This document shows, piece by piece, positions 33,510-33,625 of a stretch of DNA of 56,474 nt (its first letter is position 1; every line of letters starts with the position of its first letter). This stretch comes from a virus (Duplodnaviria > Heunggongvirae > Uroviricota > Caudoviricetes), in IMG/VR virus record IMGVR_UViG_2880372215_000005. The stretch is one strand, 5' to 3'. The translations under genes were made by a program, and so were the position numbers. The notes under the pieces were generated by a model, which saw only the letters and a list, made by a program, of their open reading frames with translations, had not been told where the DNA came from and did no database searches.

Positions 33510-33625
33510 TGCTGCCTGGTTAACATTTGCTGAAAAAGCCTGTTAACATTTTTTCCGCACAACAAACTGAATAATAAAGATAAAAACCGCAAAAATGCCC
33601 GGGCAGCCAGTTAACATGTTAACTG
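33510..33625. promoter_or_regulatory. candidate cos / terminase recognition region (cluster of five GTTAAC cores)
   Basis: GTTAAC at about 33514, 33529, 33542, 33610 and 33618 within 115 bp, in the HNH-terS intergenic region. Confidence 0.4.

Follow-up and report, generated by a model that had tools for sequence, protein, structure and literature searches.

What do the GTTAAC repeats do that stand between an HNH endonuclease gene and the small-terminase gene (terS) of a Shiga-toxin phage: do they mark where the genome is cut, where the terminase binds, or neither? We address this question in one stretch of viral DNA of 56,474 nucleotides (the window), which is a Stx-converting lambdoid prophage. 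Over the 851-bp HNH–terS stretch, this DNA matches the Stx2-converting phage Stx2a_WGPS6 (genus Pankowvirus) at 99.9% identity; for many further Stx1 and Stx2 phages the identity is ~94%. An earlier note, made from the letters of this DNA, had placed the repeats between the two genes and named them a candidate cos or terminase-binding site, in the position that HK97-like phages use. The cluster is indeed intergenic, both flanking genes lie on the minus strand, and the gene order HNH, cos, terS, terL is that of HK97-like phages, with HNH adjacent to cos and directly upstream of it in the direction of transcription. The HNH–terS intergenic region measures 289 bp (Table 1). We consider it quite likely that five copies of the 8-mer GTTAACAT make up a putative small-terminase recognition array of an HNH-type cos, the functional equivalent of cosB in phage lambda.

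Table 1. Features of the packaging region of the window, with distances counted from the predicted cut
Feature	Position	Strand	From cut	Description
HNH endonuclease gene	33717..34082	-		121 aa; Pfam PF01844, E = 5e-6; annotated HNH endonuclease in NC_049945
Left part of conserved cos block	33667..33716	-		G-run (33700-33706 region) and CGATCGCCCTGGACAC; common to phages of ~20 species and satellites
Cohesive-end sequence	33657..33666	-		CGCGCCCCCT; predicted 10-nt 3' overhang, by homology with the MT225100 termini and PMC7946995
Conserved block	33626..33656	-	+1..+31	CTCACGCAGAGAAAAAATTCCCGTTTCAGGG; A6 tract at +12..+17; common to all TerS classes
Site A	33608..33625	both	+32..+49	Perfect 18-bp palindrome CAGTTAACATGTTAACTG; two overlapping GTTAACAT half-sites
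Spacer A-B	33550..33607			T-tracts, up to 85% AT (33568-33587)
Site B	33542..33549	-	+108..+115	Single site ATGTTAAC
Site C	33519..33526		+131..+138	
Site D	33502..33509		+148..+155	
Sites C and D together	33498..33530		+127..+159	Perfect inverted repeat GCAAATGTTAAC-N9-GTTAACATTTGC; 12-nt arms, 9-nt gap
Linker	33428..33497	-		Poorly conserved; ends in Shine-Dalgarno GGGAGGAGG before the terS GTG
terS	32864..33427	-	+230	187 aa, GTG start; Pfam PF03592 Terminase_2, E = 4.5e-8
terL	31206..32867	-		553 aa; Pfam TerL_ATPase and TerL_nuclease
Protease-capsid fusion gene	31142..29205	-		Late genes

The repeat cluster is real and lies far beyond chance. GTTAAC occurs 20 times in the 56-kb window, against 8.9 ± 3.4 times in shuffled sequence, and five of its cores are clustered (33504-33509, 33519-33524, 33542-33547, 33610-33615, and 33618-33623). 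Each of these five belongs to an exact copy of GTTAACAT in one orientation or the other. The 8-mer has 5 copies, all of them within 33502-33623 and none elsewhere in the 56 kb (whole-window shuffles give 1.56 ± 1.23); a naive Poisson estimate sets the chance of at least five copies in 122 bp at ~6e-15. The number of five cores, as first counted, holds up; the start assigned to the cluster, 33510, does not, since the first core begins 6 bp earlier and the actual extent is 33498-33625. An inverted GTTAAC pair that had been described proves to be part of the palindrome at 33608-33625, and two of the five sites are inverted relative to the other three. The AT-rich spacer between sites A and B is possibly a bendable segment; a search of spacer and array for an integration host factor (IHF) site gave only 2-mismatch matches to WATCAANNNNTTR.

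The position of the cut comes from a close relative. In phage Lys8385Vzw (MT225100), the intergenic DNA and terS are ~96-98% identical to the window (96% for terS). The MT225100 record opens 229 nt ahead of terS and closes 59 nt past the HNH stop codon; it ends with GGACACCGCCCCCCCT (final letters CGCCCCCCCT) and restarts with CTCACGCAGAGAAAAAATTCCC (opening CTCACGCAG). PhageTerm analysis of induced Lys8385Vzw virions reported a cos phage with 3' cohesive ends and the 10-nt sequence CGCCCCCCCT (PMC7946995). This sequence aligns to window 33666-33657, which reads CGCGCCCCCT. The top-strand cut would accordingly fall between 33657 and 33656, a position carried over to the window prophage from one PhageTerm analysis of one relative; we number from it on the minus strand, with +1 at 33656. 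Since the equivalent of CGCCCCCCCT occupies 33666-33657, the cut lies outside the interval 33510-33625, on its HNH side and 32 bp away from the palindrome. This places the repeats between the cut and terS, where lambda has its cosB. Of the two roles first offered for the cluster, cos or terminase-binding site, the second is thus the one that we retain, and cleavage inside the interval is not; the genome ends of the relative map immediately adjacent to the cluster rather than to some other part of the phage.

The overhang is polymorphic at window position 33663: the window has CGCGCCCCCT, Lys8385Vzw has CGCCCCCCCT, and a difference at this base is seen in roughly half of the distinct variants, so that the cohesive ends of co-resident prophages may be non-identical. 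On the other side of the overhang, the left part of the cos block may serve as an element of the cosQ kind or in recognition by the nuclease. Two other sources of termini were set aside: the ends of the phi330 record (PV189401) were uninformative, as the record opened inside terS, and Burkholderia relatives with record starts 22-60 nt ahead of terS lacked GTTAAC and appeared to begin at arbitrary points.

The motif extends well beyond the Stx lineage. Related phages carry it as well, and in ~20 Enterobacterales species the N-terminal ~47 residues of TerS proteins of this family hardly vary. Across ~20 other species, GTTAAC-type motifs are ~125-fold enriched near cos; in non-Stx phage loci, GT[AT]AAC[AG]T occurs 35 times in the 6.2 kb around cos versus 4 times in the other 88 kb. 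In these other species, the conservation of a ~90-bp block reaches the terS start codon itself. The block comprises GTAAACAT, CGATCGCCCTGGACACCGCGCCCCCTCTCACGCACAGAAAAAATTCCCCTCTGGAGGGT, and GTAAAC followed directly by ATGTTAAC; its near-palindrome straddles the terS ATG (ATG TTA ACA = Met-Leu-Thr) and is orthologous to site A of the window. Because the near-palindrome overlaps the terS start in most of these relatives, its conservation there could partly reflect coding or translation constraint. Sites uncoupled from the start codon are also found: two GTTAACC repeats in loci L184 and L185, and three GTTAAC within 40 bp in Oceanisphaera. In the Stx lineage, ~190 bp separate the palindrome from the GTG-start terS and hold three extra sites.

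A side observation concerns the opposite flank of the cut. Most of the other-species relatives (L006-L024) have an extra GTAAACAT ~30 nt from the cut on the HNH side, so that motif copies flank the cleavage site; at that position the window reads GAAAAAAAA, and the GTAAACAT copy has been lost.

The geometry of the relatives invites a historical explanation, in which the repeats are non-functional relics: ATGTTAAC would be the ancestral terS start, and a ~190-bp rearrangement would have displaced terS and left duplicated 5' ends behind. The palindrome ATG is the terS start codon in ~20 other species, the conserved block ends exactly at ATGTTAAC, and each minus-strand ATGTTAAC opens a mini-ORF that starts MLT (ATG TTA AC = Met-Leu-Thr). 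Against this history, the sequence behind sites A, B, and C shows no significant similarity to the 5' ends of terS genes (p = 0.02-0.6), two of the five sites are inverted, and the GTTAAC repeats of L184 and L185 have no start-codon overlap. Neutral relics, moreover, would decay like their surroundings, and a natural comparison contradicts this.

The comparison is provided by L269 (IMGVR_UViG_3300011597-type contig), a ~10.8-kb satellite that encodes an integrase, Ash, a D5/DUF5906 primase, a single-stranded DNA-binding protein (SSB), and a Phage_cap_E-like capsid gene product, and that has no terS, HNH, or terL. At its end stand the cos core (10735-10754) and all five GTTAACAT sites, in the order, orientation, and spacing of the window. 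Window and L269 are identical at 10/10 bases of the cohesive-end sequence, 87% identical over the +1..+31 block, and identical at 38/38 bases of the five sites. The inter-site spacers have fallen to 53-68% identity (68% for 33550..33607). Beyond site D identity is 39%, the figure for the linker at 33428..33497, which also diverges strongly in locus L089. At a spacer-level identity of ~62%, 38/38 would arise by chance with a probability of ~1e-8. The sites are also under-variable in the population: among 67 distinct Stx-lineage sequences, 1/38 columns vary in the sites versus 50/191 elsewhere between cut and terS (Fisher p = 3.7e-4), and site B is invariant in the 67 variants and in L269. We regard the relic explanation as very unlikely; site A is nonetheless orthologous to the ancestral start-codon position of terS. 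The cos end of L269 adjoins a host autotransporter gene, and the core scan contains at least two more loci of the same kind.

The same data bear on whether the region is expressed as a product in its own right, either a hydrophobic peptide of 24 aa encoded on the minus strand at 33623..33549 (MLTGCPGIFAVFIFIIQFVVRKKC) or an RNA structure in the late transcript. The mini-ORF starts at the ancestral terS start inside the palindrome and is intact in 63 of the 66 distinct readable variants. However, the other three are frameshifted or read through the stop, substitutions are evenly divided (6 synonymous versus 6 non-synonymous) with no clear coding signature, the Shine-Dalgarno sequence is degraded relative to that of relatives, and the ORF is not kept in L269, where the corresponding spacer is 68% identical and has indels. 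For an RNA, the interval has no Rfam family and a fold z-score of -1.4. Both products would leave the sites outside the ORF unexplained, and we find them exceedingly unlikely.

A recognition array is expected to change with the protein that reads it, and the core-sharing loci provide this comparison. We scanned viral contigs for the cos core GGACACCGCNCCCCNTCTCA and compared at least 117 loci that share it. TerS proteins with a ..KGSQL or ..QGSRL helix accompany GTTAAC-type repeats; satellite TerS with ..KGWQL accompany AAAAGTTACAC repeats (GTTACAC); and phage TerS with ..QQGSKL or ..AAGARL accompany AAAAGTTAAAG repeats (GTTAAAG). The pairing of helix type and repeat type has no exceptions in these loci, save ~19 KGSQL/QGSRL loci scored without GTTAAC because the script took an upstream in-frame start and the true-start site fell outside the scanned region. 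As the loci are phylogenetically related, this is a consistent pattern rather than 117 independent tests, and the counts overstate independence.

The third class comprises at least ~15 loci (for example L203, L215, L237, L241, and L244), which are phages with HNH, terS, terL, and portal genes. Their TerS starts MALTEKMKKFA, and 2-3 direct repeats of AAAAGTTAAAG follow the same cos core. These phages are AT-rich, have an identical cos core (GGACACCGCCCCCCAT followed by CTCA), and carry a further AAAGTTAAAG copy inside the terS coding region.

The satellite class shows how the parts can be exchanged. Satellite-like islands encode the TerS homologues P0063 (L086-L088 and L174-L183) and P0053 (L092-L093), with a D5/DUF5906 primase or AlpA nearby and without HNH or terL; L086 also has a capsid-like gene after terS. 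The C-terminal half of both homologues is like that of Stx-phage TerS and the N-terminal helix-turn-helix (HTH) is divergent, so that on sequence these proteins look chimeric. Their DNA has the same cut-site core, followed by AAAAGTTACAC repeats in place of GTTAACAT. An alignment of the window with satellite L092 shows a homologous scaffold in which the repeats are exchanged at the same positions: GTTAACATGTTAAC in the window is AAAAGTTACAC in L092 at the palindrome, and ATGTTAAC-N9-GTTAACAT is AAAAGTTAC-N5-GTAACTTTT at the C/D inverted repeat. The AT-rich spacer is homologous in the two, and at site B both read ATGTTAACA, a shared hybrid site. A search with the C-terminal half of TerS for further swaps of the DNA-binding domain (DBD) returned fragments only. 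The comparative evidence from the three classes argues that the repeat motif is specified by the TerS DBD, independently of the nuclease site.

The satellites also help to judge whether the sites serve another protein (a host nucleoid protein, the HNH or TerL nuclease, or a transcription regulator) or form the terS promoter. Palindromes are typical of operator sites, the palindrome here is a 2-mismatch match to the IHF consensus, and the motifs build a sigma70-like TTAACA-18-TAACAT on the plus strand at 33520-33549. The promoter match, however, is antisense to terS, and such matches are at chance (1 found versus 1.2 expected); our search of the array for a sigma70 promoter or a terminator returned chance-level hits only. 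Same-host satellites that encode TerS retain the core at which the helper TerL and HNH have to act, yet carry other repeats; TerL, HNH, and host factors accordingly do not require the phage repeats. Nor are the sites a terS promoter, since the TerS-less L269 has preserved them although no gene follows. We rate this group of explanations as quite improbable.

TerS recognition of the array is consistent with the predicted structure of the protein. In an AlphaFold2 model, residues 1-54 form a four-helix N-terminal domain (helices 4-14, 19-25, 33-41, and 44-54; pLDDT above 90), followed by a disordered linker (59-100) and a helical hairpin (115-142). The N-terminal HTH superposes on the SF6 small-terminase DBD (4ZC3/2CMP; Foldseek) with a TM score of 0.82, an rmsd of 1.6-2.5 Å, and 28% identity; weaker fold matches to this domain are the PaP3 and NV1 small terminases. 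The HK97 small-terminase chain was found neither in the PDB sequence search nor among the listed fold-search matches, and the lambda-type small-terminase family gave no Pfam match to TerS. At residue 38, all GTTAAC-type loci that were examined have Ser and the GTTACAC satellites have Trp; judging from the fold, the helix that contains this residue would be the recognition helix.

Among known systems, lambda cosB (R3-I1-R2-R1, bound by gpNu1) is the closest functional match to the array. In both, a series of short repeats in both orientations occupies ~120-190 bp of the DNA that separates the nick site from the small-terminase gene, an AT-rich or bendable segment separates the first site from the rest, and the specificity determinant is separate from the nuclease site. 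There are differences as well. The lambda TerS is of the gpNu1 type and the one here is a Terminase_2 protein with an SF6-like HTH; the motifs are unrelated; lambda has an IHF site, I1, between its R elements, whereas the array has an AT-rich spacer and no recognisable IHF site; and lambda has 12-nt 5' overhangs, in contrast to 10-nt 3' overhangs with an HNH partner here (in the relative; PMC7946995). Because the TerS family and end chemistry differ and no IHF site is recognisable, this is not lambda cos by homology.

HK97, the best-studied phage with an HNH-type cos, shares the HNH-cos-terS-terL order, cutting with the help of HNH, and a 10-nt 3' overhang (here from the relative). It also has an A-tract close behind the cut, within +15..+29; that of the window is at +12..+17. 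HK97 TerS recognises one 15-bp site at +15..+29, with DNA threaded through the ring (PMC11331095), a precedent that counts against the array reading. Here, by comparison, TerS differs and an array of five sites stands farther from the cut, at +32..+155. The third comparison is with SPP1/SF6 G1P, which has the same N-terminal DBD fold (4ZC3/2CMP). At the pac site of SPP1, recognition involves multiple short boxes, repeated close to the terS start or across it. SF6 and SPP1 package by headful from pac, whereas the group studied here has defined cohesive ends (in the relative; PMC7946995).

We return to the array as a putative cosB-like element read by TerS. It lies on the terS side of the cut (+32..+155, with terS at +230), its motif copies exceed chance, and its motif is linked to the DBD. 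From these comparisons we infer physical binding of TerS to the repeats, to which the five sites kept by the TerS-less satellite L269 lend indirect support, and from the layout of the region a possible order of events. Late in growth, the HTH domains of oligomeric TerS would attach to the palindrome (+32..+49) and to sites B, C, and D (+108..+155), and the AT-rich spacer would let the DNA bend or wrap around TerS; bending is speculative, as there is no convincing IHF site. Bound TerS would then bring TerL and the HNH protein to the conserved core next to it, and their staggered cuts there would leave the 10-nt 3' overhang CGCGCCCCCT (33666-33657). Packaging would proceed toward terS. The A-tract at +12..+17 may possibly contribute to TerS recognition.

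Satellite piracy by known tricks has precedents: SaPI TerS homologues, PICI Rpp and altered cosB, and cos-carrying satellites such as P4 and SaPIbov5. The PICI EcCICFT073, for example, keeps the helper cosN and has a different cosB (PMC6739421), thereby making use of the division between specificity and nuclease sites noted above for lambda. The satellites described here use such tricks as well: those of the L086 and L092 kinds have their own TerS with a new DBD and matching repeats, and L269 copies the packaging signal of the helper. They differ from the known pirates in that they belong to an HNH-type cos system with 3' overhangs and in that the TerS looks chimeric. These features suggest that Stx-type phages are helpers of TerS-encoding satellites; a 2018 PICI paper found no helper for its two tested TerS-encoding E. 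coli PICIs. In the literature searched, no paper describes the cosB of this phage group, and none treats the cos or cosB of TerS-encoding E. coli PICIs or their use of these helpers. The array is most likely an ordinary kind of element that is new, within that literature, for this very common phage group.

A more general organization can be proposed tentatively, at somewhat less than even confidence. One nuclease core, GGACACCGCNCCCCNTCTCA, served by TerL and HNH, would be combined with interchangeable address modules, each a TerS HTH and its GTTA-core repeat (GTTAAC, GTTACAC, or GTTAAAG), and at least two kinds of E. coli satellite would have five-site Stx phages as helpers that have escaped notice. 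Of these two kinds, one might have swapped the DBD and repeats and kept the Stx-like C-terminal half of TerS, and the other, without TerS, might have copied the helper array. If such an organization holds, pirating satellites could affect how Shiga-toxin phages are produced and spread, and the Ser or Trp at TerS residue 38 would be a candidate for the switch in specificity. Whether or not it holds, the three pairs of motif and DBD behind one cut site are a test bed already at hand for work on DNA reading by small terminases of the HTH type. To our knowledge, the only structural account to date of DNA reading by a small terminase concerns the HK97 protein, which is unrelated.

There are practical consequences as well. 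Knowledge of the packaging signal gives true genome ends for annotation, makes packaging-competent prophages easier to predict, and shows which satellites these phages can mobilise or suffer interference from. A minimal cassette of ~33498-33716 could be used to test plasmid transduction by Stx phages. Of 5,426 complete E. coli genomes, 1,276 carry the 289-bp intergenic element, at up to seven copies per genome, and no annotated feature lies beneath it in the records listed. It is therefore an unannotated yet common element of E. coli, often carried by several prophages of one genome, many Stx1- and Stx2-converting phages included.

Three minor features of the window complete the description. 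A DUF3950 gene (75 aa; 34124-34351, plus strand) is divergent from the late operon just upstream of HNH and is also present in relatives such as L089. Rfam matches at 39470-40081 and 44708-44857 comprise the small RNAs AgvB (anti-GcvB) and STnc100, two tRNA genes, and the sok antitoxin RNA, which are typical of lambdoid prophages of enterohemorrhagic E. coli (EHEC). Finally, a second GTTAAC-N2-GTTAAC pair, AATTGTTAACTGGTTAACGTCA, occurs at 52044-52057 in the early region, ~60 bp upstream of a 62-codon ORF whose product we take to resemble the cell-division inhibitor DicB; unlike the cos-proximal sites, this pair has no AT extension, and a relation to the array is improbable.
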